DNA from: Bacillota bacterium
Lineage (GTDB): Bacteria > Bacillota > Sulfobacillia > Fermentithermobacillales > Fermentithermobacillaceae
NCBI GenBank assembly: GCA_033809515.1
Contig: JAPXLN010000001.1
Coordinates: forward strand, 158,101 to 222,100
DNA length: 64,000 nt
Direction of reading: 5' to 3'
This document shows positions 1 through 52,475 of this stretch, one piece after another. The notes beneath the pieces are model-generated. The model saw only the letters and a program-made list of their open reading frames with translations. It ran no database searches and had not been told where the DNA came from. A program made the position numbers and the translations under genes. Each line of letters begins with the position of its first letter. Position 1 is the stretch's first letter.

Positions 1-249
1 GGCACTGTATATCCAGTGTTCACGGCGCCTGCTGATGTTACCGACATGGACACGGCTGAAGTTCAGAATGCCCATGAGAAAGGCGCCGATACCCATGTAG
101 GTCATGGCGTAGCTTATCAGTGCGCGTACTTTCAAAGTGGTGCCGGGAACCAGCAAAGCTTCCACCGGGCCAATCCACTCAAACGCCCACCGCGCTATTA
201 TCATGATGATCATGATGATAAACGGAACTTCTCTTTTCAGCTCAGACAC
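1..249 (-). CDS. Cassette copy A, 220-aa-family polytopic membrane protein. Partial: N-terminal part only, truncated by the window edge.
   Basis: Positions 1-249 are identical to 7009-7257, the 5' part of the copy-C 220-aa gene. Hydrophobic N-terminus. Same frame as the copy-C gene. Confidence 0.7.
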   Translation of the reverse strand, partial: MSELKREVPFIIMIIMIIARWAFEWIGPVEALLVPGTTLKVRALISYAMTYMGIGAFLMGILNFSRVHVGNISRRREHWIYSA

Positions 250-281
250 CTCCCTTCAGTTGCCACTGTGAAGACCAAATC

Positions 282-1115
282 CTAGTAATTCAGCAAAGTC
301 TTGAGGAAGTTGTGCTCAGGAGCGAAAGTCTCAAGCAAGGTTCCGGCCACAATCATGACAAACACGGCCACACGGTAGATGTCCTGCGACACAACGCTGC
401 CGGTGATGACTGGCTCCTTGGAGATATACGCAGCGCCGGCAAACATTTCCTCGCCGATGAGAGTGTAGTCACACGTGGCAATGAAGAACGGAGTCTGGGA
501 AGTATTGTACTGGGCTGATACCTGGATAGCTCCTTCCAGACAACCTGCCTCAGCCAGGATAAGACACTCAGCGTAGAAGTAACCGATCAGGAACTGAGCT
601 GCAGGCTTCTCGCGAGCGATCATACCGGCCACTCCCATAGTCCAGGCAAACTGGGTGCCTGACAGATACCTGATGTCGTCTCTGTTGAACGCATCAGGGC
701 GTCCGGCCTCAAGAAATGCCTGCCTGACGATTTCCTGGTGTACCGCGTTGCACAGATAGCTGCTGTCGGTAACGATGATCCTGGTGTCATAGGATGCGCA
801 CAGCTTTGCAACGTGGGCCATATACGACCAATATGCGAAGGTACCCGAACCGCCAAGCCCTTCACTGTAGTTGGTCATATGGACCGGCCGACCCATTTCC
901 GTGGCACGTCCTACTGCCTCGTCGAAGGAATCCAGCCCGGGTATTCTGCGAATCTCCGGGAGAGGCAAACCCGCTCTTGCGCGATTTACGCCCCACCAAA
1001 TCAAGATCCCTTGAACAACGTAGAACAGACAGGCAAAGACCGCGTTCTTCTGGTTGATCACGAACCCCATCTTGTACTTAGGCGCTTCTGCCGCCAGGTA
1101 GAGCAGTTGAAACAT
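282..1115 (-). CDS. Cassette copy A, 277-aa membrane protein of unknown family. Topology: N-terminal TM, soluble domain of about 200 aa, C-terminal TM.
   Basis: Provided ORF. AGGAGG RBS 7 nt upstream of the ATG. One aa (I20V) differs from copy C (7290..8123). About 78% identical to copy B (3813..4646). Confidence 0.85.
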   Translation of the reverse strand: MFQLLYLAAEAPKYKMGFVINQKNAVFACLFYVVQGILIWWGVNRARAGLPLPEIRRIPGLDSFDEAVGRATEMGRPVHMTNYSEGLGGSGTFAYWSYMAHVAKLCASYDTRIIVTDSSYLCNAVHQEIVRQAFLEAGRPDAFNRDDIRYLSGTQFAWTMGVAGMIAREKPAAQFLIGYFYAECLILAEAGCLEGAIQVSAQYNTSQTPFFIATCDYTLIGEEMFAGAAYISKEPVITGSVVSQDIYRVAVFVMIVAGTLLETFAPEHNFLKTLLNY

Positions 1116-1300
1116 TCATTTCACCTCCTTCTGCATAAGATAGGCCGGTACTCATCTGCCGTACAGAACCAGTTGGATTGGTGCATCTAGTACTCCGTTG
1201 AAAAATAAGACCAAGTTTTGTCTGCCGGTTGAACAGCCCGTGCCTTCAATGCCTCTCTATTCTACATTTTTCTAAGAATTCCTTCTGCCTTAAATTTTTT

Positions 1301-1330
1301 ATTCTACACTAAAGCGAAACTTGTCGTCAA
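1301..1330 (-). promoter_or_regulatory. Sigma-A-type promoter for cassette copy A: TTGACG-18 nt-TAGAAT, read on the minus strand.
   Basis: Hexamers read directly. The -10 is at plus 1301-1306 and the -35 at 1325-1330. A homologous element with perfect consensus sits at 4844-4873. Confidence 0.5.
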
Positions 1331-1410
1331 ACCGCAAATATTGTCATATAGCCGGAGAGTCTTATTTCTCACCCTGTAAGCAGACTAACTGGCAATGCTC
1401 ACCGAAACGC

Positions 1411-1455
1411 AACGGAAATAAACGGGACCCGGGTCTTAAGTCCCGGGTCCCGTTT
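1411..1455 (-). terminator. Intrinsic terminator ending cassette copy B.
   Basis: Perfect 14-bp stem with an 8-nt loop at 1420-1455. On the transcribed minus strand it is followed by UUUAUUUCC. It lies about 100 nt after the 206-aa stop. The same hairpin is conserved at 4962-4997. Confidence 0.6.
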
Positions 1456-1556
1456 AACAACTCGTTAGGATACTACCGAGTATCCAACGTGAATCAGGCC
1501 TCTATCTTCAACCAGTCAGTCAGTAGCGCTGCAATAGTCCTCCGTCACCGGTAAGT

Positions 1557-2177
1557 CTAGCCTCTAGCAAACATAGGCTGTATCCAGTCGCGTAACAAGA
1601 ACTGCAGCCGGCCAAGGAACAACGATATCCGTCCCTCGATGGTGTTACCGAAAGCAGCGCCAAACCTAATCATCATGAAGTACCGTCCGATTTTGCCACA
1701 CGTAGCAACCGTCTTTGACGTCTTGCCTACCGTGAAGAAGAAGTACATCATGGCACAAACCCAGATTACGAGGAACAGCAAGTTCTCAAATTCTCTGAGG
1801 TTACGCATGTTATCGGCTATCTGTACCATGGTCGATCTGGCGCCTCGGGCAATACTATATCCTATGCTCCACCCCATGCCGATGCAAATGGGATACGAGG
1901 CAAGCCAGCCATACTTTCCGCCCCAGAAGCTCCTTGTATAGTATAATGCACCCATAGGGACCAGCAACAGGAACCACCACCGGCCATCCTCAACGACGTG
2001 AGTCTTGTAGTAAGGGATAATGCTCTGGTGCACGCTCAGACAAAGACCGCGGCCAATCACAAGAGCGATAAATGTGTGTTCCGCAAACCGGTAGAAAGGG
2101 TTCTCCTTGATCAGGTACGAGTAGACCGCAAGAGTAAGCAATGCCGCCACCCATATTTGAGGTCTGGTCCATTCCAC
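1557..2177 (-). CDS. Cassette copy B, 206-aa polytopic membrane protein of unknown family.
   Basis: Provided ORF. GAGGTG RBS. Several hydrophobic segments. About 75% identical to the copy-C paralog at 5036..5647. Confidence 0.8.
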   Translation of the reverse strand: MEWTRPQIWVAALLTLAVYSYLIKENPFYRFAEHTFIALVIGRGLCLSVHQSIIPYYKTHVVEDGRWWFLLLVPMGALYYTRSFWGGKYGWLASYPICIGMGWSIGYSIARGARSTMVQIADNMRNLREFENLLFLVIWVCAMMYFFFTVGKTSKTVATCGKIGRYFMMIRFGAAFGNTIEGRISLFLGRLQFLLRDWIQPMFARG

Positions 2178-2226
2178 AGAAGTTCACCTCGCTTTCACAA
2201 TTGCCGTCTCGAAGATGATGACGTAA

Positions 2227-3069
2227 TCACACGGCCCTTGCCCTGCCCTTTTGCTTCAGGAAGAACGACACGTTACCCAGTACCACAAGAATCATGATTA
2301 TCAAGTGGCCGAGGCTTTGTGCATCCATAAGGACAGTTGCCTCACCTTTGCGGCCCAGGAGTTTCTCATACTGGGCAGCACCGCTCATCCCTGCCATCAG
2401 TCCCTTAATCTGACCCGATCTCAGGACGCTCATCAACGCAGAGGCCTCAACCGCCAGTGAGCCAACATAGATTTCGCAGTCAGCCCACTCAACCAGATAT
2501 GTACCCACTCCAGGACTTCCTGCGTAGAAGTCGATCAAACCCTTGGAGGTTTCGGCATTCCACTTTTTCACCCTCTCCATTAAAGGCAAGGTAGAAAAGT
2601 GATTACCCCAGAAGTCAGTATTGCCGCAGGTTTTCCAAAAGTCCTCTCGCAGTTCGCGCCAGGTCATGCTCTTCCAGCCTACGAAAACCCAATCGACGCC
2701 GTACTCTGCATTGTAACCGTCAGCCTTGGCCTGCTTTGCCACTCTCTTGCAGACATCCCCTGCTATCATTGCTCCTGCGTTCCACTGAGCCAAACCCACA
2801 ACCTTGAGGTCTTTCTTCAGGCAATGGTAGAACCAGGCTTCCAGCTGCGGTGTCAACTCCGCATTAACTGCGGATCCGAAGGATGCGTCGAAGAACACTA
2901 TCTCTCCTGGCTGACTGTTTTCAATCCAATCAAACACGGACCTGGTCATCTCGCTAATCCCTAGGGGCATGCCAATCGGCTTAAGAACCGGGATTACCAG
3001 GGCCAGTGCCATAAGCAGATACACCATCCGCGGACTAATGTCCTCGAACCTTTCAAAAAACTGCCTCAC
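2227..3069 (-). CDS. Cassette copy B, 280-aa membrane protein of unknown family. Topology: N-terminal TM, soluble domain, C-terminal TM.
   Basis: Provided ORF. GGGAGGGG RBS. Paralog of 5695..6537. Confidence 0.8.
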   Translation of the reverse strand: MRQFFERFEDISPRMVYLLMALALVIPVLKPIGMPLGISEMTRSVFDWIENSQPGEIVFFDASFGSAVNAELTPQLEAWFYHCLKKDLKVVGLAQWNAGAMIAGDVCKRVAKQAKADGYNAEYGVDWVFVGWKSMTWRELREDFWKTCGNTDFWGNHFSTLPLMERVKKWNAETSKGLIDFYAGSPGVGTYLVEWADCEIYVGSLAVEASALMSVLRSGQIKGLMAGMSGAAQYEKLLGRKGEATVLMDAQSLGHLIIMILVVLGNVSFFLKQKGRARAV

Positions 3070-3125
3070 TCTTGTCCCCTCCCTTCACGACAAAGTGCAT
3101 TTCACAAAAACAAGGCTCGAACGCC

Positions 3126-3788
3126 CTATTGCTGCGTCAGATGACGCCTTTCTATGCCAAGGACCACCCTCCATGTACTGGCGATGCCTCCGAAGTACAC
3201 GCCAATACTGATGGCCCGCCCAACGGCTGCAGTGGGTATCTGTAACGCCCAATCCTTAATTCCGATGAACCCCCCCAACCAACCATCGGTGCCCCAGATG
3301 AACTGCCCAAAAGGAACGTTGGCCAGCATCACAATAAGGGCAAAGCCCATCATGACTGTGGCGTCCATGTTCCTCAGCCTAAAAGCCCTGTAGGCAGCTG
3401 AAGCGATATAGAAAGCAAGGAGCGAGAACATGGTTGAATCCAAGGGTACGCTCACAACCTGGAAGATTGCATCGAACAGTGGGTCGGTATTTGACTTCCA
3501 TATGCCGTATATGCCATAGCTCCAGGCTAAGACAACAGCCCATGCGCTGAATATCCAGTTCTCACGACGCTTTCTGACGTTATTCAAATGAACGCGACTG
3601 AAATTCACTGCGCCCAGACCGAAAGCGCCCAATCCCATGAAATCCAGGGCCCAGCTTATACACGTACGAACCTTCATCCCGTCGGCGAGCCTCATGGCCT
3701 CAGCCGGACCAATCCACTCAAGCCCCCAGCGAAGGATGATCATGATGATCATGAGGATAAACGGAATTTCCCTTTTCAAATCGTGCAC
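3126..3788 (-). CDS. Cassette copy B, 220-aa polytopic membrane protein of unknown family.
   Basis: Provided ORF. GAAGGGGGG RBS. Paralog of 6595..7257. Confidence 0.8.
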   Translation of the reverse strand: MHDLKREIPFILMIIMIILRWGLEWIGPAEAMRLADGMKVRTCISWALDFMGLGAFGLGAVNFSRVHLNNVRKRRENWIFSAWAVVLAWSYGIYGIWKSNTDPLFDAIFQVVSVPLDSTMFSLLAFYIASAAYRAFRLRNMDATVMMGFALIVMLANVPFGQFIWGTDGWLGGFIGIKDWALQIPTAAVGRAISIGVYFGGIASTWRVVLGIERRHLTQQ

Positions 3789-3812
3789 CCCCCTTCAAAC
3801 GGCACATGCTTG

Positions 3813-4646
3813 CTAGAAGTTGTAGAACCTCAGAAAGAAGTTATACTTAGGTGCAAACGTCTCCAGCAGCGCGCCGCAAAGAACCGAAACGAACACAACC
3901 ATACGGATAATGTCCTGGGATACAACACTACCGGTGATAACCGGCTCCTTGGACAGCCACGCAGCCCCGGCGTACAACTCCTCACCGATCATGACATAGT
4001 CACATGATGCAATTAGAAACGGAATCTGCGTCGTTGAACCCGTGGCAACAATCTGAATAGCTCCTGCCAGGGCACCTGCTTCCGCCACCAGAAGCGCTTC
4101 GGCCTGGAACCCCCCGATCAGAAACTGAGCCGCAGGCTTCTCACGAGCGATCATGCCGGTCACGGTCATGGCCCAGGAAAACTGGGAGCCTGTCACGTAC
4201 CTGATATCATCGCTGTTGAAGGCATCGGGCCGCCCGGCCTCGAGATATGCCTGTCTAACGAGGTCCTGATGAACTGCGTTGCACAGATAACTGCTGTCAC
4301 TTACGAGTATCCTGGTATCGTACGACGCACATAGCTTCGCAACGTGGGCCATATACGACCAGTAGGCGAAAGTTCCGGCACCTCCGAGACCTTCGCCGTA
4401 GTTGGCCATATGAACAGGCCGTCCCATCTCAGTAGCACGCCCTACTGCCTCGTCGAAGGAGTCCAATCCCGGTATCTTGCGGATATCCGGCAGCGGCAGA
4501 CCCGCTCTTGCACGGTTTACCGCAATGTACACCAGAACTCCCTGAACCAAGTAGAAAAGGCAGGCTGAAACAGCATTCCTCTGGTTGACCACGAAGCCCA
4601 TTTTGTACTTTGGCGCTTCTGCAGCCAGGTAGAGCAGTTGAAACAT
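3813..4646 (-). CDS. Cassette copy B, 277-aa membrane protein of unknown family.
   Basis: Provided ORF. AGGAGG RBS. About 78% aa identity to copies A and C. Confidence 0.85.
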   Translation of the reverse strand: MFQLLYLAAEAPKYKMGFVVNQRNAVSACLFYLVQGVLVYIAVNRARAGLPLPDIRKIPGLDSFDEAVGRATEMGRPVHMANYGEGLGGAGTFAYWSYMAHVAKLCASYDTRILVSDSSYLCNAVHQDLVRQAYLEAGRPDAFNSDDIRYVTGSQFSWAMTVTGMIAREKPAAQFLIGGFQAEALLVAEAGALAGAIQIVATGSTTQIPFLIASCDYVMIGEELYAGAAWLSKEPVITGSVVSQDIIRMVVFVSVLCGALLETFAPKYNFFLRFYNF

Positions 4647-4843
4647 TCATGTTCACCTCCTTCGGCGGAGAAGATAGGCCGGTACCCGCCCGCTGTACAG
4701 AACCAGTTGAACTGGCGCATCTGGTACTCCATTGAAAAACCAGACCAAGTTTTACCTGTCGGCTGAGAAGCCCGTGCCTTCGATGACTCTCCATTCGACA
4801 GTATTCGACATGTTTCTAGGGATTCCTCCCACGTAAAATTTTT

Positions 4844-4873
4844 ATTATACACTAAAGCAAAAACTGTTGTCAA
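4844..4873 (-). promoter_or_regulatory. Consensus sigma-A promoter for cassette copy B: TTGACA-18 nt-TATAAT.
   Basis: Perfect -35 at plus 4868-4873 and perfect -10 at plus 4844-4849, read on the minus strand. The leader from here to the start codon at 4646 is about 190 nt. Confidence 0.6.
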
Positions 4874-4952
4874 ACTAAAAATCTTGCCACCTGGCCGAAA
4901 AGTCTTATTATCACCCTGTAAGCAGCATGACTGGCCATGCTCGCCGAAACCC

Positions 4953-4997
4953 AGTGGAAATAAACGGGACCCGGGTTTTGAGTCCCGGGTCCCGTTT
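4953..4997 (-). terminator. Intrinsic terminator ending cassette copy C.
   Basis: Same 14-bp stem as 1420-1455, with a different loop (TTTTGAGT). A U-rich tract follows on the minus strand. Confidence 0.6.
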
Positions 4998-5035
4998 GAA
5001 AACTCGTTGGGATACTACCAAGTATCCAACATGAA

Positions 5036-5647
5036 TCAGGCCTTTATCTTCAACCAGTCAGTCAGCAAGAAACTCAAGCGACCAAGGAACAGGGAAATTC
5101 GACCCTGAATCGTGTTTGCAAAAGCTGCTCCAAATCTGAGCATCATGAAATAACGCCCTATCTTGCCACATGTGGCAATTGTCTTCGACTCTTTGCCCAC
5201 TGTGAAGAAGAAGTACATCATGGCACAAACCCAGATTGCGAAGAACAGCAAGTCGTCGAATTTCTTAAGATTGACCATTGTATCTGCCAGCTGTACTATT
5301 GTCGACCTGTATCCTCGTGCAAGATCGTATCCCAGATCCCATCCCATTGACAGACAGATAGGATACGATGAAAGCCACCCGTATTTCCCATCCCAAAAGT
5401 ATCTGGTGTAATACATGAGACCGATTGGTACCAAAAGGACAAACCACCAGCGACCGTCTTCGATGACGTGGGTCTTAGTATACGGAATCAACGTCTGATG
5501 TATGCTCATGGTTACACCATGACCCACGGCAAGGCCCACAAAAGTATGCTCAGCAAACCGGTACCAAGGATTCTCTTTCACCAGGTACGAGTAAACCCCA
5601 AGAGTCAGGAAAGCCGCCAGCCATATTTGAGGCCTAGTCCATTCCAC
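5036..5647 (-). CDS. Cassette copy C, 203-aa polytopic membrane protein of unknown family.
   Basis: Provided ORF. Paralog of 1557..2177. Confidence 0.8.
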   Translation of the reverse strand: MEWTRPQIWLAAFLTLGVYSYLVKENPWYRFAEHTFVGLAVGHGVTMSIHQTLIPYTKTHVIEDGRWWFVLLVPIGLMYYTRYFWDGKYGWLSSYPICLSMGWDLGYDLARGYRSTIVQLADTMVNLKKFDDLLFFAIWVCAMMYFFFTVGKESKTIATCGKIGRYFMMLRFGAAFANTIQGRISLFLGRLSFLLTDWLKIKA

Positions 5648-5694
5648 GAAAGTTCACCTCGCTTTCCTTTCCAATCCCAAGTAATAAGTCCGGC

Positions 5695-6537
5695 CTAGAC
5701 GGCACTTCCCCTGCTTTTTTGCTTCAGGAAGAACGACACGTTACCCAGTATGATAAGGATGATGATTATCAAATGGCCCAGGCTTTGCGCATCCATAAGC
5801 ACTGTTGCTTCGCTCGGACGGTTAAGAAGCTTCTCATACTGAGCGGCCCCACTCAAACCCACCATCATGCCCTTAATCTGACCTGATCTCAAAACCGACT
5901 GAAGGCCTGATGCCTGGACAGCTGCAGCACCAACATAGATATCATGTTCGGCCCAGTTGATCAGGTAGGTGCCTACGCCAGGGCTTCCGCTGTCAAACCC
6001 AAGGAACCCCTTGGAGGTTTCAACATCCCACTTCTTGACCCTTTCCATCAGAGGCAGGGTCGAAAAGTGATTTCCCCAGAAGTCCGTGTTGCCGCAAGTC
6101 TTCCAGAAATCCTCCCGCATTTCACGCCAGATCATAGACTTGTATCCCACAAAGACCCAGTCAACACCGTACTCGGCGTTGTACCCGTCTGCCTTGGCCT
6201 GCTCCGCCACTTTCTTGCATACGTCAGCAGCTATCATAGCTCCGGAACTCCACTGAGATATGTTGATTACCTTAACGTCCTTTTTCATGCAATGGTAGAA
6301 CCAGGCCGCAAGCTGTGGGTTCAGCTCTGACGAAGAACCGCCGCCGTAGGCTGAGTCGAAGAATACGATGTCACCCGGGTTGCTATTCTCAATCCAATCG
6401 AATATGACCCTCGTTGACTGATCGACCACTATGGGCATGCCAATAGGCTTGAGAACCGGGATTACCAGGGCCAGCGCCATGAGAAGATACACAATGCGGG
6501 GGTTGATATCTTCAAATCTCTCGAAGAACTGTCTCAT
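5695..6537 (-). CDS. Cassette copy C, 280-aa membrane protein of unknown family.
   Basis: Provided ORF. Paralog of 2227..3069. Confidence 0.8.
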   Translation of the reverse strand: MRQFFERFEDINPRIVYLLMALALVIPVLKPIGMPIVVDQSTRVIFDWIENSNPGDIVFFDSAYGGGSSSELNPQLAAWFYHCMKKDVKVINISQWSSGAMIAADVCKKVAEQAKADGYNAEYGVDWVFVGYKSMIWREMREDFWKTCGNTDFWGNHFSTLPLMERVKKWDVETSKGFLGFDSGSPGVGTYLINWAEHDIYVGAAAVQASGLQSVLRSGQIKGMMVGLSGAAQYEKLLNRPSEATVLMDAQSLGHLIIIILIILGNVSFFLKQKSRGSAV

Positions 6538-6594
6538 TTACGTTCCCCTCCCTTCACCCGAAACTGCGCTAAACTTCCAGATATGCCCGGGCCA

Positions 6595-7257
6595 TCACTG
6601 TCCCAGGTGACGCCTTTCTATTCCAAGGATTACCCTCCAGCTGCTTGCAATCTGACCGAACACTATACCAAGACTGATCGCCCGGCCAACAGCTGCCGTT
6701 GGGGTCTGCATTACCCAATCCCGTAGTCCCACAAATCCCCCTAAAGGGCCGCTGCTGCTCCATACGAACTCCCCCAGAGGAACGTTAGCCAGCATCACAA
6801 CGAGGGCAATGCCCATCATCAAAGTGGCCTCCACGTTTCTTAGCCTGAAAGCCCTGTAAGCGGCAGAGGCAATGTAGAACGCAAGAAGCGAGTACATAGT
6901 TGCGTCCAGCGTTGTAAAGACGACTTGATAGATGGAATCATACAGTGGATCCTTGTTGCTCTTCCACACACCGTACGCGGCATATCCCCAGGCGCATATA
7001 AGCGCCCAGGCACTGTATATCCAGTGTTCACGGCGCCTGCTGATGTTACCGACATGGACACGGCTGAAGTTCAGAATGCCCATGAGAAAGGCGCCGATAC
7101 CCATGTAGGTCATGGCGTAGCTTATCAGTGCGCGTACTTTCAAAGTGGTGCCGGGAACCAGCAAAGCTTCCACCGGGCCAATCCACTCAAACGCCCACCG
7201 CGCTATTATCATGATGATCATGATGATAAACGGAACTTCTCTTTTCAGCTCAGACAC
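6595..7257 (-). CDS. Cassette copy C, 220-aa polytopic membrane protein of unknown family.
   Basis: Provided ORF. Paralog of 3126..3788. Its 5' part is identical to 1-249. Confidence 0.8.
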   Translation of the reverse strand: MSELKREVPFIIMIIMIIARWAFEWIGPVEALLVPGTTLKVRALISYAMTYMGIGAFLMGILNFSRVHVGNISRRREHWIYSAWALICAWGYAAYGVWKSNKDPLYDSIYQVVFTTLDATMYSLLAFYIASAAYRAFRLRNVEATLMMGIALVVMLANVPLGEFVWSSSGPLGGFVGLRDWVMQTPTAAVGRAISLGIVFGQIASSWRVILGIERRHLGQ

Positions 7258-7289
7258 CTCCCTTCAGTTGCCACTGTGAAGACCAAATC

Positions 7290-8123
7290 CTAGTAATTCA
7301 GCAAAGTCTTGAGGAAGTTGTGCTCAGGAGCGAAAGTCTCAAGCAAGGTTCCGGCCACAATCATGACAAACACGGCCACACGGTAGATGTCCTGCGACAC
7401 AACGCTGCCGGTGATGACTGGCTCCTTGGAGATATACGCAGCGCCGGCAAACATTTCCTCGCCGATGAGAGTGTAGTCACACGTGGCAATGAAGAACGGA
7501 GTCTGGGAAGTATTGTACTGGGCTGATACCTGGATAGCTCCTTCCAGACAACCTGCCTCAGCCAGGATAAGACACTCAGCGTAGAAGTAACCGATCAGGA
7601 ACTGAGCTGCAGGCTTCTCGCGAGCGATCATACCGGCCACTCCCATAGTCCAGGCAAACTGGGTGCCTGACAGATACCTGATGTCGTCTCTGTTGAACGC
7701 ATCAGGGCGTCCGGCCTCAAGAAATGCCTGCCTGACGATTTCCTGGTGTACCGCGTTGCACAGATAGCTGCTGTCGGTAACGATGATCCTGGTGTCATAG
7801 GATGCGCACAGCTTTGCAACGTGGGCCATATACGACCAATATGCGAAGGTACCCGAACCGCCAAGCCCTTCACTGTAGTTGGTCATATGGACCGGCCGAC
7901 CCATTTCCGTGGCACGTCCTACTGCCTCGTCGAAGGAATCCAGCCCGGGTATTCTGCGAATCTCCGGGAGAGGCAAACCCGCTCTTGCGCGATTTACGCC
8001 CCACCAAATCAAGATCCCTTGAACAACGTAGAACAGACAGGCAAAGACCGCGTTCTTCTGGTTGACCACGAACCCCATCTTGTACTTAGGCGCTTCTGCC
8101 GCCAGATAGAGCAGTTGAAACAT
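7290..8123 (-). CDS. Cassette copy C, 277-aa membrane protein of unknown family.
   Basis: Provided ORF. Differs from copy A by one residue. Confidence 0.85.
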   Translation of the reverse strand: MFQLLYLAAEAPKYKMGFVVNQKNAVFACLFYVVQGILIWWGVNRARAGLPLPEIRRIPGLDSFDEAVGRATEMGRPVHMTNYSEGLGGSGTFAYWSYMAHVAKLCASYDTRIIVTDSSYLCNAVHQEIVRQAFLEAGRPDAFNRDDIRYLSGTQFAWTMGVAGMIAREKPAAQFLIGYFYAECLILAEAGCLEGAIQVSAQYNTSQTPFFIATCDYTLIGEEMFAGAAYISKEPVITGSVVSQDIYRVAVFVMIVAGTLLETFAPEHNFLKTLLNY

Positions 8124-8344
8124 TCATTTCACCTCCTTCTGTAAAAAATGTCGCACGACCGGACCCCGGCTACATAGCATTCTTGCGATGTAAGACCTGT
8201 TCATTACTGCGACTTAAGGGTTCATCCGTGCGACTTGCAACAGTATTACTATTCGATATATCTCACCAAAATCCTTCTTGATTCGCACAATATGTCGAAG
8301 TGTGTCGGCCGTCGGCGGTTTTGGCGGGCACGCCCGCAGCCCGT

Positions 8345-8389
8345 TCAAAAATCAAGGCCCCAGCCATGGCTTTTACCAGGCCGGGGCCT
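8345..8389 (-). terminator. Intrinsic terminator after the S9 peptidase gene.
   Basis: Imperfect GC-rich stem (AGGCCCCGGCCUGG...CCAUGGCUGGGGCCU) followed by UUGAUUUUUG on the minus strand. Confidence 0.5.
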
Positions 8390-8405
8390 GCAGCGTAATC
8401 AATGC

Positions 8406-9389
8406 CTACAAGCTCACAGGATAGGGCGGGTTCAGGTATCTGGCCAGAAACTCGTATATCTCCTTACGAGACTCTTTGGCAAGCCTAGTGTCTATCCTGT
8501 CAAACACATGTCCGCCGGGAGCGTTGTCGTAGATCTTGTACTCAAACTCCTTGCCCGCAGCCTTCAGCGACTTAATCAGATGCTCAACCTCCAGGACGTT
8601 CACATCCTCGTCGTTGGTGGTCGTATGAACTAGGAGAGGAGTCTCCAGCTTGTCAGCATGCCAGGCAGGTGAGCGTTTCCTGTACTCCTTGGGATCCTGA
8701 GCGGCGGTTCTCCCTATGTGATACGGCGCAGCAAAGAGCTCTTGATAGTAGGGCCCCTTGTACCCCATCCGGGCCACCAAATCGCTGACAGGAACCCCTG
8801 CATAAGCTACCTTATAAGCTTCAGGGTAACGGAAGATGTTGAAGAGAGTGATAAAGCCGCCGTGGCTCCATCCCATGATACCCACTCGATCAGAATCTAC
8901 CAGAGGCTCATTTTCGATCATGAAATTGCGCCCTTCCAGGCAATCCTCTACTTCCAGCCCACCGTAGTCAATAAACCTGTAGAACTGGCCACCGTAACCT
9001 GTACTTCCCCGGTAGTCAGGCGCCACAACTATGTACCCCTGGCTTACGAGCTCCTTAATTATGTGGGCCGAACCGGTGCTGAAATTGGAGTGCACTCCGC
9101 CGTGAACGAAAACCATGAGCGGGTACTTCTTGCTCATGTCTGCGTCTTTCGGCACGAAAGTATAGGCCCGGATCTTCAAGGGATTCCCCCTATCCTGGGA
9201 CGACTGCGCCGCCGGATTTGCAGGAGGAGGACCAATGTAGGTAACTTTGTCAACGATGGCTGTATCTTGCATCACCTGGAACCAATGTACGTCATCTATG
9301 GCCTTTGCCAAAGACGAAAACGTCTGGCCCAGGCCTGCCTGTTGTCGCTTGAGCTCCTCAATCTGCTTCTTGAGTTCCTCCATGAACAA
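8406..9389 (-). CDS. S9-family peptidase / alpha-beta hydrolase (prolyl oligopeptidase C-terminal fold).
   Basis: GWSHGG nucleophile elbow and the characteristic VHGG...PDYRGS region. Coiled-coil N-terminus. Confidence 0.7.
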   Translation of the reverse strand: MFMEELKKQIEELKRQQAGLGQTFSSLAKAIDDVHWFQVMQDTAIVDKVTYIGPPPANPAAQSSQDRGNPLKIRAYTFVPKDADMSKKYPLMVFVHGGVHSNFSTGSAHIIKELVSQGYIVVAPDYRGSTGYGGQFYRFIDYGGLEVEDCLEGRNFMIENEPLVDSDRVGIMGWSHGGFITLFNIFRYPEAYKVAYAGVPVSDLVARMGYKGPYYQELFAAPYHIGRTAAQDPKEYRKRSPAWHADKLETPLLVHTTTNDEDVNVLEVEHLIKSLKAAGKEFEYKIYDNAPGGHVFDRIDTRLAKESRKEIYEFLARYLNPPYPVSL

Positions 9390-9496
9390 ACAGCCCCCTT
9401 ACCGTATTTCCCATTAGATATTTCTTGTATCGAAATACTTCCACGAAACTGTTTGTTACTCCTGCCTGAATATTAGCTTGCACGTTCTCCAATCTG

Positions 9497-10765
9497 TTAA
9501 CCCAGGCGAGACTTTTCGCCCGGCATATACTTGCGCAGTACCTCCGGAACGGTGACGCTTCCGTCGGCATTCTGGTAGTTCTCAAGGATAGCTACCAGGG
9601 TCCTGCCGATAGCAATAGCGGTACCGTTCAGGGTGTGCACCAAAGCGGTTTTCCCGCCTGTAGCTTTCTTGTACCTCACGTTCAACCCTCTGGATTGAAA
9701 ATCCGTGCAGTTGCTGCAGGAAGTTATCTCCCGGTACACCCGGTCGGACGGCTTCCAGAATTCAAGATCATACTTCTTGTATGCCACAGGGCCTAAATCG
9801 CCTGCACATATGTTCACAACTCTGTAAGGTATCTCCAGTGTCTGGAAGATCCTCTCCTCAAGGGATACCATCCATTGGTGGGTTGCCTCTGAATCAGCTG
9901 GCTTGTCATACACAAACATCTCCAGTTTGTCAAAGTGGTGTGTGCGTATGAGTCCCCGAACATCCCTGCCTCCGGACCCTACTTCAGTCCTATAACACGG
10001 AGAGAACCCGGCGTACTTAAGGGGCAGATCCTCTTCCCGGAGGATCTCGCCGGCATGCATGGCGCCCAGGGGAATCTCGGAAGTACCGACTAAACCCAGA
10101 TTCTGGCCTTCAATCCGGTAGATCTGATCGCTGAAAAACGGCAGGTGCCTGGTTCCCAGAAGGACATCCTCTCTTACGACTATGGGCGGTATGACGGGCT
10201 GAAACCCTTCTGCAACCAGCAGATCCAGGCCAAACCGGACCAGGGCCAACTCAAGGTACACGGCATCGTTCATCAGGAAATAGGTCCTGGTGCCCCACAC
10301 CTTTGCACCCTTCCCGGTGTCTATAAGCCCCAGGGACTCTCCTATCTCAACATGATCCCTAACCGGGAAGTCAAAGGTTCTAGGCCGGCCCCACCGTCTC
10401 ACCTCAGCGTTTTCCGAATCATCCTTGCCTTCAGGGACATCGGGGGCCAGCAAGTTAGGAACCCAAATCACTATGTCATGGAGCTTCTTCTCAATCTCTG
10501 AAAGTCTTCCCTCTGTCTCAAGAACCTTCTCCCTCACAACCCTGCTTGCTAAGATAAGCTTTTCTCGCTCCTCAGGGTCGCTCTGCCTGCTGACCTTTGC
10601 CGTAATTCGGTTCCTTTCTTCTCTGAGGTCGTTGACCTGTCGAACAAGGGCAGAGCGCTCCTCGTCCAGCTGTAAAATGAGATCCAGGGGAGCTGTAGCC
10701 TTGCGCCTTCGCAGCATGTCTTCGACCAGAGGCCGGTTCTCACGCAAAATGCCTACGTCGAACAT
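9497..10765 (-). CDS. serS: Seryl-tRNA synthetase.
   Basis: Coiled-coil N-terminal arm plus class II aaRS core motifs. 422 aa. Preceded by a T-box leader. Confidence 0.9.
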   Translation of the reverse strand: MFDVGILRENRPLVEDMLRRRKATAPLDLILQLDEERSALVRQVNDLREERNRITAKVSRQSDPEEREKLILASRVVREKVLETEGRLSEIEKKLHDIVIWVPNLLAPDVPEGKDDSENAEVRRWGRPRTFDFPVRDHVEIGESLGLIDTGKGAKVWGTRTYFLMNDAVYLELALVRFGLDLLVAEGFQPVIPPIVVREDVLLGTRHLPFFSDQIYRIEGQNLGLVGTSEIPLGAMHAGEILREEDLPLKYAGFSPCYRTEVGSGGRDVRGLIRTHHFDKLEMFVYDKPADSEATHQWMVSLEERIFQTLEIPYRVVNICAGDLGPVAYKKYDLEFWKPSDRVYREITSCSNCTDFQSRGLNVRYKKATGGKTALVHTLNGTAIAIGRTLVAILENYQNADGSVTVPEVLRKYMPGEKSRLG

Positions 10766-11040
10766 AGTCTTCCCTCCTTAAAATAAAGGAGCAGGTCGTC
10801 TCAAGGACGAGACAACCTGCTCTCGTGGTGCCACCTTGTTTTGCGTAGTCCAGGATGGCCTGGAACCCGCCTCGTCTGCCGTAACGGGGCTTACCGGCAC
10901 AGCATACTCAGGCCTGTATTGTCAAGCCCTTTGTGCAGCGCACCTCCGGGGTGCTCTCAACAGGGTGCCGGGCGCCGCCTCGCACCGGCCGGCAGCTCTC
11001 TTTGGCCCGTAGACCTGTCTATCTGTCCCCTTCAACGGTT
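10766..11040 (-). promoter_or_regulatory. T-box riboswitch leader of serS.
   Basis: On the minus strand the T-box sequence AACAAGGUGGCACCACG (plus 10822-10842) sits immediately 5' of a 14-bp terminator hairpin (10789-10822) followed by CUUUAUUUU, then the AAGGAGGG RBS and the start codon. The UGGC bulge predicts discriminator G, as in tRNA-Ser. A candidate promoter TTAACT-17-TGaTATAGT lies at 11047-11075. Confidence 0.6.
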
Positions 11041-11110
11041 TCAAAGACTATATCATAGGCTGCGCCAAAAGTTAAACCGCATTCCTCGTCACAACCGCAT
11101 TAGAACCACG

Positions 11111-12331
11111 CTAGAACCGCAATGCCTTTACCCAGAGATGCATGACCAGGCGGAGGTTTGGATCTTCCAGGTCCGCTCCGGTAATCTCCTGAATTCGTCT
11201 GACTCTGTAGTCCAGGGTATTGGCATGTATATCCAGCCTTAAGGCGGCCTCCTTGCGCTTGCCGTAAAAATCAAGGTAAGCTTCAAGGGTGGCAAAAAGG
11301 TCGGTACCCCGGTGACTGTCGTAATCTCTGACCTTCTCTACAAGACGCCTGCCGAAGTAGGGCGAAGTCGGACAAGTAGCCATGCATGAGACAAGCTCAT
11401 AAGCAGCTAGTGTGCTGTAGTCGAAACATGGTCCCCGGGAGCCCAACTTGATTCCGATGTTGATAGCTCTTGAAGACTCCAGGTAACACGCTCGCACGTC
11501 AGAAAGACTCTCTCCCGGAGTGCCCATTCCCACAGCAAAAACAAGGCGCCGGGCTTGCCCCGGCTCCTCGCCTGGCTCACCCATATCCCGGTCCCAGGCT
11601 CCCGCCTTTTCGGCCAGCTTGCTTGCCTCCGAAGCGCTTATGCCGCTCACAACGAAAACCGTCTCGCTCTCAAAGGTGCCTCTGACAAAGCTTACCCCAT
11701 GCTTCTGCAAGCTCTCTTCAAAAGCATTTGCGCACCGGAGGACCGGCTCAAGGTCAGCCCCGGATACGGCCCTAACGGTAACTACATAAATGGGCCGGGA
11801 AGGATACCATCCAAGAGCTTTCGCCCTGAGGTCAAGCGCTTCACCAAGATCATTAAGGTCGCCGGGCTCAGCAGCAATAAGGTCCCTGACAAGTCCGTTT
11901 TGCAGTTCATCCCGGCGCAGCCATGCCGAGTCTCTGCGCAATAGGGCTGATGCCAGTGCCTGACATGCCCGCAAGAACGCCTCTTCGATCCTGGCAGGTA
12001 TTATTGATTCATCATACACGGCCCAAAGGTAACCGAGCACCTTACCCTTGGCCTTTACCGGTGCGCAGATCCGCGGGCCGAACCCTATTTCCGGAATGGC
12101 AGCCACCCGAGCAATGCCAGTGGCAGAGTCCACACATTCATAGACACCCCTTCTCCTCAGGGCGTCAAGGGTGTTGAGAGATGCCCCTTTTCTTAGAAGG
12201 GTTTCCATGCGGACATTATCAACCGGTTCCTCGTGAACCGAGTATGCTATGAGCCTTCCAACTGCATCCTCTACTGTTATCGGGCGTTTGACAATGCGGG
12301 CCAGTTCATCCACGATAGACTGAAATTCCAT
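11111..12331 (-). CDS. PucR-family transcriptional regulator.
   Basis: C-terminal PucR-type HTH (LRLDIHANTLDYRVRRIQEITG). It directly follows the oxidoreductase operon. Confidence 0.7.
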   Translation of the reverse strand: MEFQSIVDELARIVKRPITVEDAVGRLIAYSVHEEPVDNVRMETLLRKGASLNTLDALRRRGVYECVDSATGIARVAAIPEIGFGPRICAPVKAKGKVLGYLWAVYDESIIPARIEEAFLRACQALASALLRRDSAWLRRDELQNGLVRDLIAAEPGDLNDLGEALDLRAKALGWYPSRPIYVVTVRAVSGADLEPVLRCANAFEESLQKHGVSFVRGTFESETVFVVSGISASEASKLAEKAGAWDRDMGEPGEEPGQARRLVFAVGMGTPGESLSDVRACYLESSRAINIGIKLGSRGPCFDYSTLAAYELVSCMATCPTSPYFGRRLVEKVRDYDSHRGTDLFATLEAYLDFYGKRKEAALRLDIHANTLDYRVRRIQEITGADLEDPNLRLVMHLWVKALRF

Positions 12332-12419
12332 GCCATGTCACCACCTCAGTCAGGCAAAGAACATCCAAAGGCCCGATACGACTGTTCGTCATGTTCCCGG
12401 CATTATCCTGCAAAAGCGC

Positions 12420-13568
12420 CTAGACCACCGAAGGTTCGACCATTAGTTCTCCACGCTTGAACCTGTCCAGATTCAGACCGCTGATGTCAAGGGAAGTCTC
12501 CTGCCCCAGGATCAGTTGGGCCATGAGCCGGCCGGTGATAGGAGCAAGCATGAATCCGTGTCCGCTGAATCCAACTGACTGGTAGTAACCTTGGACTCCC
12601 GGGACATCTCCCAGAATTGGGTGTGCGTCGGGCGTAACCGTGTACAGACCCGACCACTGCCTGACCACCCGGATACCTCTCAACGCAGGCAGCACAGGGC
12701 ACATGACCCTTGCCATTTCCTGTAGGAAATGCCATGAGTGGCCAATGTCATATCCCAGAGGTTCGTTAGGGTTCCCCATACCCATCACAAAAGAGCCTTC
12801 AGGGCCCTGCTGGCAGTAGTAGTTTCTCGAGAACGACATGAGCATTGGGTCCAAAATCCATCCAACAGGCTCAGTGGCAAGGATCTGGTGGCGCTGGGTA
12901 AATAACGGCAGTTCCACTCCGACCATCGCAGCTACAGGGGCCGCCCATGGTCCCGCTGCGTTGATGACTATGGGTGTGCTTATTCCTCCCCTGTCAGTGG
13001 TGACTCTTTGCACCTGGCCACCGGATACGTCAATTCCCGTTACCCTGGTGAAGAAACTTGCTTCGCCGCCTAACCTCCGAAAAGCTTGTAGATATGCCCT
13101 GGTAGTTTGAAATGGGTTGGCGTGGCCATCCCGGGCATTGAAGGTAGCTCCATAGAGGCCTTCTACGCTTACAGGCGGGAAAGTGTTTTTCACATCGTCA
13201 GGAGTCATGATTACCGACTTGATGCCCAAGCGGTTCTGAAGAGCTACGTTCTTTTGAAACTGATCCCACTCTTTCTCTGTGTAGGCCATCATAAGGTAGC
13301 CTTTCTCCAGAAACTCAATGTCTCTGTCAGCCTGAAGCTCTTCCGGAAGCTGCTCGAAGATATCAATGGCCGCCTTGGCGAGCAAGCAATTGCCTTCTCT
13401 GCCCCATTGCTCTCTGACGCCGGCACCGCACCTTCCTGTAGAACCGTTTGCAAAAGTATTCTTCTCGCAGAGCACCACATTCTTCATGCCCAACTTGAGA
13501 AGGTTGTAGGCAATTGACGCACCCTGCACACCGCCACCGATAACTACGGCATCGGCACTCTTTCTCAT
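12420..13568 (-). CDS. FAD-dependent oxidoreductase, D-amino-acid-oxidase (DAO) superfamily. Sarcosine oxidase beta / HcnC / OoxB-like.
   Basis: N-terminal VVIGGGVQG dinucleotide-binding motif. 382 aa. Confidence 0.8.
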   Translation of the reverse strand: MRKSADAVVIGGGVQGASIAYNLLKLGMKNVVLCEKNTFANGSTGRCGAGVREQWGREGNCLLAKAAIDIFEQLPEELQADRDIEFLEKGYLMMAYTEKEWDQFQKNVALQNRLGIKSVIMTPDDVKNTFPPVSVEGLYGATFNARDGHANPFQTTRAYLQAFRRLGGEASFFTRVTGIDVSGGQVQRVTTDRGGISTPIVINAAGPWAAPVAAMVGVELPLFTQRHQILATEPVGWILDPMLMSFSRNYYCQQGPEGSFVMGMGNPNEPLGYDIGHSWHFLQEMARVMCPVLPALRGIRVVRQWSGLYTVTPDAHPILGDVPGVQGYYQSVGFSGHGFMLAPITGRLMAQLILGQETSLDISGLNLDRFKRGELMVEPSVV

Positions 13569-13999
13569 GATCCCTTCACCTCCGCCGCCTTACCCTTGTC
13601 GCTGGCCTTCTCTGACTCTTGGCCGCCTTCTTCCATGTCCCTTTGACCGGCTGGAAAAGCGGCCCTCTCCAGATCCCCCATCTGCACGGCCTTGGACGGA
13701 GGTCTGCAAGTGGAAGGCAGTATTTCGGCAACGTTCTTGCCCAGAGCTCTGGCCAGTTCAGAAGCAATGAGCAGGCGGCACGTACGTCCCTGGCATGGTC
13801 CCATGCCCGCCCTGGTGGTACGCCTTATCTCGTCCATGGTGGTTGCGCCTTCCCGAATAACCTTTCGGATCTCCTCCAGGGTAACGTCTTCGCACCTGCA
13901 AACGATGATGTCACCGTCAAGTTCAGGCATGATCACCACTCCTCGCATATTCGAAAGTGCCTGGCAACTGTAGACAGATCCTTGGGAGCTCTTACCCAT
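13565..13999 (-). CDS. BFD-like (2Fe-2S)-binding protein. The true start is probably internal, near 13930.
   Basis: CRCEDV...C...C motif typical of the BFD-like [2Fe-2S] domain. The longest ORF overlaps the upstream gene by 67 nt. Confidence 0.55.
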   Translation of the reverse strand: MGKSSQGSVYSCQALSNMRGVVIMPELDGDIIVCRCEDVTLEEIRKVIREGATTMDEIRRTTRAGMGPCQGRTCRLLIASELARALGKNVAEILPSTCRPPSKAVQMGDLERAAFPAGQRDMEEGGQESEKASDKGKAAEVKGS

Positions 14000-14439
14000 A
14001 CAACAGGTGTGCCCTGAGGCTTCTTGCCGGAAATGACCCTTTCCACCGAACCTCTGCCTGCGATGCTCCCGGATCTATCAAGCAAGGTCACCTTCTGGCC
14101 CTTTTCTGGCAGGGGGCAGAACTCATAGGGCATGGCTATTAGGCACTCTGTATCGCTGAAAGTATCGTCGATGACGAAAATGGCCAGCCCAGGACAAGCT
14201 GCGACACATGCGCCGCAGCCGGTACACTTATCCCAGTCAGCCACAGGAATGTCGTTAATGTCGTGAAACTCAGGGATGCCTCCAAAGCGACAGCTGTGAT
14301 GGCAAGGGTCGCAGGGTATCTTCTGAAAGCATTCAATCATCACGTAGGGTCCTTTTGCCCTTCTCTCTTTGGAGGGTATTTTCCGTGAAAGATCCTCCTG
14401 AGAGGGCACCCCTGACGAGAGCAATGAGTTCTCCGTCAT
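13933..14439 (-). CDS. 4Fe-4S dicluster ferredoxin-domain protein.
   Basis: CDPCHHSC and CTGCGACVAACP cysteine motifs. Confidence 0.65.
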   Translation of the reverse strand: MTENSLLSSGVPSQEDLSRKIPSKERRAKGPYVMIECFQKIPCDPCHHSCRFGGIPEFHDINDIPVADWDKCTGCGACVAACPGLAIFVIDDTFSDTECLIAMPYEFCPLPEKGQKVTLLDRSGSIAGRGSVERVISGKKPQGTPVVWVRAPKDLSTVARHFRICEEW

Positions 14440-15590
14440 GATTCAGCCCTCCTCTCAGACAGTTCCTTCAGTCTCGCCAATCCCTGACGTATCTTTTCAC
14501 CTGTAGGTCCTGCTCTCAGAGACTCCAGTTCGGACGAGATATCCTGCCGCGCCTTGAAAAAGTCGTTTTCGTCCATCTTTGCCAGACTGTAGGCAGCTGA
14601 GAGTCCCGCAAGCTTTCCGGCGGCCATAGCCGTAGAAGCTTCCTCGATGCCCGCTGCATCGCCTGCTACGTAGACGCCTTCAGCTGTGGTCTCCATGTTC
14701 TCATCGTAGACGGGAACGAACCCTCCGAGCTGTGGCACGTACCTCATCTCAGATCCTGCCTGCCACAGAAGCTCCCCAAGAGGCGTCAGGCCCGTGGCCA
14801 GACATACGACATCGACTCTGAGATCCTTTTCGGTTCCGGGCACTCCCTTCCACCGCTCATCCAGCTGCCATATGACTGCGCCTTCGACCTGGACGTCCCC
14901 GTATACTTCCTTGACGCTGTGGCGTGTTAGGACAGGGATGCCAAGGCGCCTGATCTTAGCAGCGTGCACTGCGTACCCACCTATTGACGGCATGGCCTCA
15001 ACCAGACATGCGACTTTCACGCCGGCCTGAGCCAGCTGGTAGCTGACAATGAGCCCGATGTTCCCCGAACCTACCATTAGGACAGATTGTCCGGGCCGTA
15101 TGCCGTAAACATTCATAAGTGTCTGAACGGCACCTGCACCGTAAACTCCGGGAAGATCGTTGCCCGGGAAAAGCAGCATCTTCTCAAGTGCCCCTGTGGC
15201 AATCAGAAGACGCTGGCTGCGAAGATGCTCTATGCCGTCCGGGGTCTCAAGCAAAAGGACTCCGTCCTGGTAATATCCCAAAGCTTCTGTGGACCCCAGG
15301 AACCTAATGCCAGGTTCCGACATCACCTGGTCAGCCAGGCGCTGAGCAATGACAATACCGCGTGTGCCTGCTGACTTTTGATGCCATCCAAAAAACTTGT
15401 GAGTTTGCTTAATCAGCTGACCACCCGGGTAATCACTGCGGTCAATAAGGGTGACCTTGACCCCGTGTGAAGCAGCTTCAAGAGCTCCGCATATCCCGGC
15501 AGGTCCTGCCCCAACTATGGCCAGTTCAGCCTCTATCAAGATCGTCACTCCCCCATCCAGGGGCCGGTCCGGCACCCACCTGCATTTCAA
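14436..15590 (-). CDS. NAD(P)/FAD-dependent pyridine nucleotide-disulfide oxidoreductase. HcnB / OoxA / PDH-alpha-like.
   Basis: IVGAGPAG FAD-binding motif and a second Rossmann motif (VGSGNIG). ATGA overlap with the downstream gene. Confidence 0.75.
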   Translation of the reverse strand: MKCRWVPDRPLDGGVTILIEAELAIVGAGPAGICGALEAASHGVKVTLIDRSDYPGGQLIKQTHKFFGWHQKSAGTRGIVIAQRLADQVMSEPGIRFLGSTEALGYYQDGVLLLETPDGIEHLRSQRLLIATGALEKMLLFPGNDLPGVYGAGAVQTLMNVYGIRPGQSVLMVGSGNIGLIVSYQLAQAGVKVACLVEAMPSIGGYAVHAAKIRRLGIPVLTRHSVKEVYGDVQVEGAVIWQLDERWKGVPGTEKDLRVDVVCLATGLTPLGELLWQAGSEMRYVPQLGGFVPVYDENMETTAEGVYVAGDAAGIEEASTAMAAGKLAGLSAAYSLAKMDENDFFKARQDISSELESLRAGPTGEKIRQGLARLKELSERRAES

Positions 15591-52387: not shown

Positions 52388-52475
52388 AGGAAAGACCCGC
52401 CTTTCGTGGAATTCCTTGCCAGACCTGCATCCGGTCACACCGAACATTTGTTGGCCCCATATCTAGGTCTGGTCC

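Follow-up and report, generated by a model that had tools for sequence, protein, structure and literature searches.

What does a bacterium build from four membrane proteins whose genes it carries three times in a row? The question is raised by the left end of a 64,000-nucleotide stretch of contig JAPXLN010000001.1 from a Bacillota bacterium (hereafter the window), in which three copies of a four-gene cassette (genes A, B, C and D) lie in tandem on the minus strand. We call the copies cassettes C, B and A from right to left, and we label the related loci and contigs compared with the window by L-numbers. Based on architecture and genomic context, we propose with low confidence that the genes of each cassette form an operon, and that their products assemble into an integral membrane complex of four subunits that acts as a translocase or transporter of a new type. 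One of the four protein families is catalogued, as a family of unknown function; the composition, synteny, topology, accessory module, regulation and array polymorphism of the system are undescribed in the searchable literature.

Three cassettes share one gene order

We observed that the three cassettes, which an earlier note on this DNA had described as identical in gene order, all consist of open reading frames (ORFs) at the positions it gave, with cassette A incomplete at the window edge. In cassette C, gene A (7290-8123) encodes a 277-aa DUF6754 protein with a cytoplasmic Rossmann-like domain between two transmembrane (TM) helices, as indicated by the ORF, the match to Pfam PF20539, an AlphaFold model and the predicted topology. 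Gene B (6595-7257) encodes a 220-aa protein with six TM helices and an N-terminus predicted inside (ORF, topology). Gene C (5695-6537) encodes 280 aa, with a Rossmann-like domain between two TM helices that is predicted to be extracytoplasmic, and gene D (5036-5647) a polytopic protein of 203 aa with ~6 TM helices and an N-terminus predicted outside (ORF, topology). The ORFs of cassette B follow the same plan, with gene A at 3813-4646 (277 aa, DUF6754 by Pfam), gene B at 3126-3788 (220 aa), gene C at 2227-3069 (280 aa) and gene D at 1557-2177 (206 aa). In cassette A, alignment of gene A (282-1115; an ORF of 277 aa, DUF6754) with its cassette C copy showed a difference at one residue, and the first 83 codons of gene B (1-249), identical to the cassette C copy, continue past the window edge. 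The lengths reported earlier (277, 220, 280 and 206 aa) were correct except for gene D of cassette C, which has 203 codons and not 206. The gaps between genes within cassettes, as the ORF coordinates confirm, are 24-57 bp, and an invariant ribosome-binding site, AGGAGGTGAA, precedes every A gene.

Cassettes B and C are 73% identical in DNA. Their proteins are 76.9% (A), 66.8% (B), 76.8% (C) and 72.3% (D) identical, a range of 67-77% where the earlier estimate for copy B had been 75-80%. Positions 1-1141 form a near-identical repeat arm in alignment with positions 7009-8149 (99.56% DNA identity). Copies A and C are 100% identical across 1-1057, and all five differences fall at 1058-1139, beside the repeat boundary.

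The cassette recurs in more than 15 phyla

With one genome scanned per species, at least 589 loci were confirmed, and the best 80 were analysed for synteny. By tblastn, the order A-B-C-D was found in essentially every one of the 80. Because these unrelated loci share an identical four-gene order, the array is beyond chance. The best 80 span more than 15 phyla: Bacillota, Planctomycetota (including Scalindua and Brocadiaceae), Nitrospira, Methylomirabilis, Cloacimonadota, Zixibacteria, Latescibacterota, WOR-3, Eisenbacteria, Sumerlaeota, Poribacteria, Ignavibacteria and others. The protein A profile yielded 2,441 representatives at 50% identity and the family comprises more than 7,000 clusters at 90% identity; protein C has an archaeal homolog. 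To our knowledge, the family is missing from the classic model organisms, and for this reason it has escaped study.

Arrays are also common elsewhere. Two or three cassettes in a row occur in other phyla, chromosome-level assemblies included, with three-cassette arrays at L046 and L059, two-cassette arrays at L020, L023, L026, L039, L061, L065 and L070, and inverted cassette pairs at L008 and L037. At L045, two C genes lie in tandem within one cassette (9409-10242 and 10242-11114). Protein A homologs were found in none of 72,556 plasmid records and none of 50,697 phage records, and no PADLOC model matched the four cassette proteins or the accessory proteins described below; a mobile element or defence system was ruled out by the lack of plasmid, phage and PADLOC matches.

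One subunit belongs to a catalogued family

Protein A is a full-length member of DUF6754 (PF20539), with E-values of 3e-81 for cassette C and 3.5e-80 for cassette B (272.7 and 269.3 bits; gathering score, 27 bits) and a match that spans 243 of the 257 profile positions. We obtained no Pfam or NCBIfam family for proteins B, C and D. A member-by-member Pfam scan of 72 B and 69 D homologues gave no consistent weak match, only scattered hydrophobic noise, and profile searches of all PDB sequences were empty for all four families. Membership in a known family was set aside after the Pfam, NCBIfam and PADLOC scans gave DUF6754 for protein A and nothing else. The earlier view that the families are unrecognisable stands for B, C and D, and for any characterised family; it does not stand for A, which is catalogued. 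DUF6754, PF20539 and PF13941, the family of an accessory ATPase introduced below, are mentioned in no paper of the searchable literature.

By hydropathy, and for A and C also by the structure models, all four products are membrane proteins, A and C with two TM helices flanking a soluble domain and B and D polytopic. The AlphaFold models of protein A (pLDDT 90.9) and protein C (pLDDT 91.5) are confident, and both consist of a TM helix, a six-stranded alpha/beta Rossmann-like domain and a second TM helix. Foldseek searches of the whole PDB with these two models returned nothing at E <= 1e-3. The matches were of a generic Rossmann-like kind, with 1kjn common to both models. A hit to a well-characterised complex was obtained from none of Pfam, NCBIfam, the PDB profiles and Foldseek (A and C models).

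The alignment of protein A holds many invariant acidic residues in its predicted cytoplasmic domain and a single near-invariant Cys, hence no Cys cluster. In the alignments of B, C and D, the invariant and near-invariant columns included no Cys, and we recognised no nucleotide-binding motif in conserved columns, in agreement with the earlier note on both counts. A conserved segment of protein C, GLxGAAxYE, lacks the S/T acceptor of the flavinylation motif.

The predicted cytoplasmic face is conserved and the predicted outer face variable

Topology was predicted from alignment-averaged hydropathy and from counts of Lys and Arg under the positive-inside rule. Protein B is predicted to have 6 TM helices with both termini inside, and protein D ~6 TM helices with its N-terminus outside. 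Protein C is predicted to have both termini inside and its domain outside, and protein A both termini outside and its domain inside (5.8 K/R in the flanking 30 residues). The topologies of all four proteins are inferred from these topology rules together with domain insertions and extensions, and as independent observations the latter agree with the predictions. In L031 (1255-2598), a C-like soluble domain is inserted in outer loop 3 of protein B, a natural fusion by which the C-type domain comes to lie outside the membrane. In diderm phyla, protein A carries N-terminal extensions of 100-1000 aa that start with signal peptides, and a few A proteins carry extra domains after TM2. Together, the predicted topologies suggest a complex of ~16 TM helices with a conserved inner face and a variable outer face.

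The extensions differ widely. In Cloacimonadota (L053, L063, L068, L054, L035, L055 and L049), the A proteins reach 950-1010 aa, with a signal peptide and an outside extension of ~700 aa without a Pfam domain. The extension in L079 (6306-8765) is a BamB-like PQQ beta-propeller, and some A proteins have CBM-like or coiled-coil C-terminal tails. Across the N-terminal extensions there are almost no Pfam domains; Pfam reports no Fn3 domain in that of L027, which looks Fn3-like only by eye. Fusions were considered as a clue to function and discarded, as none of the C-terminally extended A proteins is a fusion with B, C or D.

Conservation scores were 0.68 for the A domain, 0.62 for the inner loops of B and 0.56 for the inner loops of D, compared to 0.32-0.50 for the parts outside. 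Between the paralogous cassettes B and C, the outer loops of protein B are 63% identical and its inner loops 76%, and the outer domain of protein C is 74% identical and its TM segments 90%. Within the system, conservation is highest at the cytoplasmic face, and the paralogous cassettes differ most outside. A variable outer face over a conserved inner one, with variable extracellular modules on A, would also be expected of a transmembrane signalling or sensing device in which C and the A extensions sense a ligand and the cytoplasmic domain of A relays the signal. However, kinase, cyclase, HAMP, PAS and receiver domains are absent from the cassette and do not recurrently adjoin it, and ~16 TM helices are heavy for a sensor. 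We regard a sensor as improbable.

Proteins A and C, and likewise B and D, are mirror images in predicted topology, which suggests that a two-gene unit was duplicated long ago with its orientation inverted. By hhalign, A and C aligned over 230 collinear columns with P = 0.014, compared to P = 0.025 for the mismatched control A-D, and BLASTP for internal duplication (A with C, B with D) was not significant. Internal duplication was dropped as a sequence result, being not significant against the control, and survives as an argument from architecture and topology only.

An accessory module with an ASKHA ATPase accompanies many cassettes

In ~30 of the 80 loci, the cassette belongs to a longer cluster with all genes on one strand, G-E-GlmL-like-F-A-B-C-D. 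Protein G is a membrane protein of ~150-180 aa and protein E has ~120 aa. The GlmL-like gene, present in ~20 of the 80 loci, encodes a GlmL/MutL-type ASKHA ATPase of ~610 aa (PF13941, E 3e-125) that scores far below the NCBIfam equivalog cut-offs (233 bits vs 475 for GlmL, 210 vs 600 for Or-4). Protein F (~375 aa) has an RnfC_N-type barrel-sandwich domain in 15 of 19 members (best E 1.2e-7) and an NQRA_N match in 4 of 19; some members have a KOW-like tail, and there is no Fe-S or FMN part. The accessory genes lie upstream of A in L033, L044, L064, L067, L034, L041 and L077, and downstream of D in L012, L014, L016, L025 and L050. One accessory module serves up to three cassettes (L046, L059).

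This ATPase, a member of the actin-like ASKHA superfamily, bears on a second explanation, that the complex is a cell-envelope machine which anchors, assembles or remodels an extracytoplasmic polymer or a surface structure. The A extensions would then contact the envelope and the ATPase would act like a cytoskeletal or assembly ATPase. The signal-peptide-bearing diderm extensions of 100-1000 aa, with one BamB-like beta-propeller among them, and the CBM-like or coiled-coil tails of A would suit such a role, and sigma-H regulons, which matter for the promoters described below, include division and envelope genes. However, the A proteins of Bacillota, those of the window included, have no extension, cassettes multiplied as tandem paralogs are seen more typically in substrate-specific systems, and no polysaccharide, peptidoglycan or lipid biosynthesis genes recur near the related loci. 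We consider an envelope machine unlikely, although of the rival explanations it is the one that we take most seriously.

Protein F bears on a third explanation, an energy-converting, ion-translocating complex loosely like Rnf/Nqr or transhydrogenase, in which two small 6-TM subunits of opposite orientation would be accompanied by a bitopic subunit whose domain lies outside and by a peripheral subunit resembling RnfC_N. The RnfC_N and NQRA_N matches of F speak for it, as do the size (~200-220 aa), the ~6 TM helices and the opposite predicted orientation of B and D. Against it, no B or D member matches the Rnf-Nqr family, and the cassette proteins have no Cys cluster, no flavinylation-type S/T motif (by eye) and no recognised nucleotide-binding motif. 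F itself is absent from the window, and the fold matches of the cassette proteins are generic. An energy converter is in our judgement very unlikely.

Opp/Dpp-type oligopeptide ABC transporter genes (SBP_bac_5, two permeases and two ATPases) are interleaved with or appended to the cluster in L081 (2062-6372 and 11182-12198), L040 (2032-5246 and 11142-13191) and L033 (11366-15155); two of these genomes are from Latescibacterota and one is from Sumerlaeota. The gene immediately upstream of cassette C in the window encodes an S9 peptidase. The Opp genes and the S9 peptidase are hints of a link with peptides, nothing more.

Further upstream in the window, a T-box leader (RF00230; 95.7 bits, above the gathering score) at 10800-11044 on the minus strand precedes a seryl-tRNA synthetase gene (9497-10765, minus strand). 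The region 11111-16000 holds, on the minus strand, genes for a PucR-type regulator (11111-12331), a DAO oxidoreductase (12420-13568) and a Pyr_redox_2 protein (14436-15590). In the conspecific contig L084, small Fer2_4, Fer4 and SO_alpha_A3 genes lie in between. Taken together, these genes resemble a sarcosine/opine-oxidase-like or HcnABC-like cluster.

Each cassette has its own promoter-like sites

An intrinsic terminator lies after cassette C (4965-4987) and another after cassette B (1419-1456; a 15-bp stem with 10 GC pairs), both on the minus strand. Both terminators are strong, and each is followed by a sigma-70-type promoter-like site on the same strand: TTGACA-18-TATAAT (12 of 12 matches) at 4844-4873 for cassette B and TTGACG-18-TAGAAT (10 of 12) at 1301-1330 for cassette A. 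With terminators after C and B and promoter-like sites before each cassette, the cassettes are taken to be independent units, as the earlier note had proposed.

The leaders of all three cassettes and of their closest relatives elsewhere share the motif RNAGGAWWW, 11 nt, RNNGAAT, which in cassettes B and A lies just downstream of the sigma-70-type site. We assigned the window copies, all on the minus strand, as sigma-H-type promoter-like sites by consensus match: AGGATTT-N11-ATCGAAT at 8251-8275 for cassette C, a motif kept in related Bacillota loci, AGGAATC-N11-GTCGAAT at 4803-4827 for cassette B, and AGGAATT-N11-GTAGAAT at 1259-1283 for cassette A. They lie 120-160 nt upstream of each A start. 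The consensus reported for sigma-H (Spo0H) is (A/G)(A/C)AGG(A/G)WWW-N11-12-(A/G)(A/G)(A/C)GAA(A/T) (PMC4754846), and the window sites are practically identical to mapped Listeria sigma-H promoters such as GAAGGATTT / GTCGAAT (PMC4754846). The pattern AGGAWW-N12-RNNGAAT has four matches in the 64 kb, three of which are the cassette leaders (chance expectation 0.23; 0 of 100 shuffles reached four). Seven Bacillota loci have the same motif 82-177 nt ahead of gene A, over a background of 0.03 per kb per strand. The fourth match (52388-52412, plus strand) lies within an nrdR-like gene of the opposite strand (51908-52447) with no gene downstream, and is probably due to chance.

A GerA/GerB/GerC germinant-receptor operon (GerB being the spore permease) lies in the window at 16077-20103 on the plus strand; it marks the host as an endospore-former, in which sigma-H is to be expected. 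These data make control of the cassettes by sigma-H a well-supported prediction. Expression would be expected as cells enter stationary phase or begin to sporulate, because a sigma-H-type promoter-like site stands before every cassette of a spore-former.

A riboswitch or other leader RNA within the 120-160 nt leaders was also considered and ruled out. No Rfam family reached its gathering score within window positions 1-8500, the leaders folded no more stably than shuffled sequences (z -1.1 and +1.0), and RNAalifold found 0 conserved pairs across 10 leaders, with no covariation.

The array combines an old paralog and a recent duplicate

Between cassettes B and C, dS has reached saturation (1.3-4), with a dN/dS of 0.04-0.16, and we take the two to be old paralogs, both functional and under strong purifying selection. 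A sister species (81% SerRS identity) has a single cassette at the same locus, in the order PucR, serS, S9 peptidase, cassette, rimP, nusA, infB. Cassette C is the ortholog of this single cassette, and cassette B is more distant from both. The array is composed of the ancestral cassette C, the old paralog B and copy A, a very recent duplicate or gene-conversion product of C. The genuine paralogy claimed in the earlier note was therefore borne out for B versus C but not for the near-identical A/C pair, which reflects recent duplication or gene conversion. Dosage selection and functional diversification, offered there as alternatives, both found some support: diversification fits B, with its outer-face differences, and dosage fits the A/C pair.

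The conspecific contigs L084, L085 and L086, which come from other samples, follow the window at 99.4-99.6% identity between positions 18123 and 4958, and beyond 4958 they run straight into rimP-nusA with one cassette only. In L084, the point of divergence, 4958, is just past the cassette C terminator. In the conspecific and sister-species contigs L084 (13329-15580) and L090 (11571-20710), a rimP-nusA-ylxR-infB-rbfA-truB-rpsO-pnp cluster follows the cassette. In our host, the rimP-nusA cluster presumably follows the remainder of cassette A, to the left of the window.

Could the three-copy array be an assembly artefact, with a single cassette in the real genome? The near-identical one-cassette contigs, the single cassette of the sister species and the 1,057 bp over which copies A and C are 100% identical would all favour this. 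However, the two junctions between cassettes (5035-4647 and 1556-1116) differ in sequence and are only 76-91% alike, so they were not made by duplicating one stretch, and cassette B, at 73% DNA identity to C, is under purifying selection. The two- and three-cassette arrays of other phyla, some in chromosome-level assemblies, also count against an artefact, as do the one-cassette contigs themselves. L084-L086 span both repeat boundaries unbroken, and no B-type protein is on record from their samples. Because of these two observations, we read L084-L086 as real single-copy strains and not as assembly collapse, and we give the artefact explanation very little weight.

Copy number is thus probably polymorphic between strains, with the three-copy state specific to some of them. 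Recombination between cassettes A and C would convert the three-copy state to the single-cassette arrangement. In a further contig from another sample, L088, a B-type cassette is 95% identical in DNA to cassette B of the window. After its gene D, an extra terminator-like hairpin and ~100 nt are inserted (3326-3519); past the insert, similarity to the window's inter-cassette junction resumes, and the contig ends within the junction hairpin.

A proposed four-subunit translocase

For each cassette, we favour a translocase or transporter of a new type, a reading that we hold tentatively and put somewhat below an even chance. It draws, at low confidence, on the architecture, on the conserved inside and variable outside, on the recurrent tandem paralogs and on the occasional Opp context. 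In such a complex, B and D would form the membrane path, C would serve as an outward-facing binding or gating domain, and A would be the conserved cytoplasmic coupling domain. Where co-encoded, the GlmL-type ATPase, F, E and G would power or assemble the complex, and paralogous cassettes would differ in outward specificity.

A bolder version is that A-B-C-D, often with the accessory proteins, represents an unrecognised class of translocation machinery in which A+B make up one half and C+D, with the opposite topology, the other. Such machinery would be conserved from Bacillota to Planctomycetota, Nitrospira and numerous candidate phyla. It would work by a mechanism unrelated to ABC, MFS, TRAP, ECF and Rnf-type systems, and multiplication of the cassette would place different outward specificities on a conserved cytoplasmic core. 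We consider this version possible but doubtful.

Several observations weigh against a translocase. We found no homology to a known transporter, channel or pump and, for the A and C models, no specific fold similarity to one. The very high conservation of the A domain, with its invariant acidic residues, would also suit an enzyme, and it is unusual for small-solute transporters to carry outside extensions as large and variable as those on A. The Opp link is confined to three loci. By tblastn, the GlmL-like ATPase, F, E and G were not found in the 64-kb window, and the accessory module is absent from the flanks of the closest relatives. The sigma-H dependence is a prediction from a consensus match.

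Whatever its activity, a strictly syntenic four-subunit membrane system in more than 15 phyla and thousands of lineages is a sizeable blind spot in bacterial membrane biology, and its host phyla, among them anammox Planctomycetota, Nitrospira, Methylomirabilis and Cloacimonadota, are environmentally important. What were hypothetical membrane proteins now form a defined system with subunits, a predicted topology, distinct faces, candidate accessory proteins and, in spore-forming Bacillota, a sigma-H prediction, and it is therefore open to direct study by structural methods and genetics. With its three copies and apparent polymorphism, the array offers a natural experiment on how the complex diversifies and how its dosage matters.

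Comparison with known systems

The system has no detectable relationship to any known kind of system. The DUF6754 entry (PF20539), of which protein A of the tested cassettes B and C is a full-length member, describes a sequence family of unknown function and says nothing on the three partner proteins, the operon or the topology. The PF13941 GlmL/MutL ATPases are accessory proteins of glutamate mutase and of ornithine degradation. The cassette-linked ATPase differs from them in being ~150 aa longer and in never adjoining mutase genes, and a literature search on GlmL with membrane gene clusters found nothing relevant. The Rossmann-like domains of MTH0777 (1kjn), sirtuin and transhydrogenase dIII share less than 15% identity with the A and C domains. 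Thousands of Rossmann-like chains score similarly, and no cofactor-binding motif is conserved.

The likeness to Rnf/Na+-NQR consists of two small ~6-TM subunits predicted to be oppositely oriented, a single bitopic subunit whose domain lies outside and, in genomes other than that of the window, a co-encoded RnfC_N/NqrA_N-type protein F. In contrast to Rnf and Na+-NQR, the cassette is without Fe-S, FMN or NADH motifs, and no B or D member matches the Rnf-Nqr family (RnfA/E, NqrD/E) at E <= 0.5.

No subunit had a Pfam/NCBIfam or PDB-profile match to ABC, MFS, TRAP, TTT, ECF, PTS, Mrp or similar systems. The subunits of TRAP, TTT and ABC importers with a fused substrate-binding protein show no sequence relationship to the cassette proteins and, as far as A and C are concerned, no fold relationship. 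These importers likewise combine several membrane subunits with an outward alpha/beta domain and likewise occur as tandem paralogous operons, and the cassette is occasionally found amid Opp-type ABC genes. The cassette differs from them in two respects: its outward domain is TM-anchored at both ends, and it has a second, mirror-image subunit with a cytoplasmic domain.

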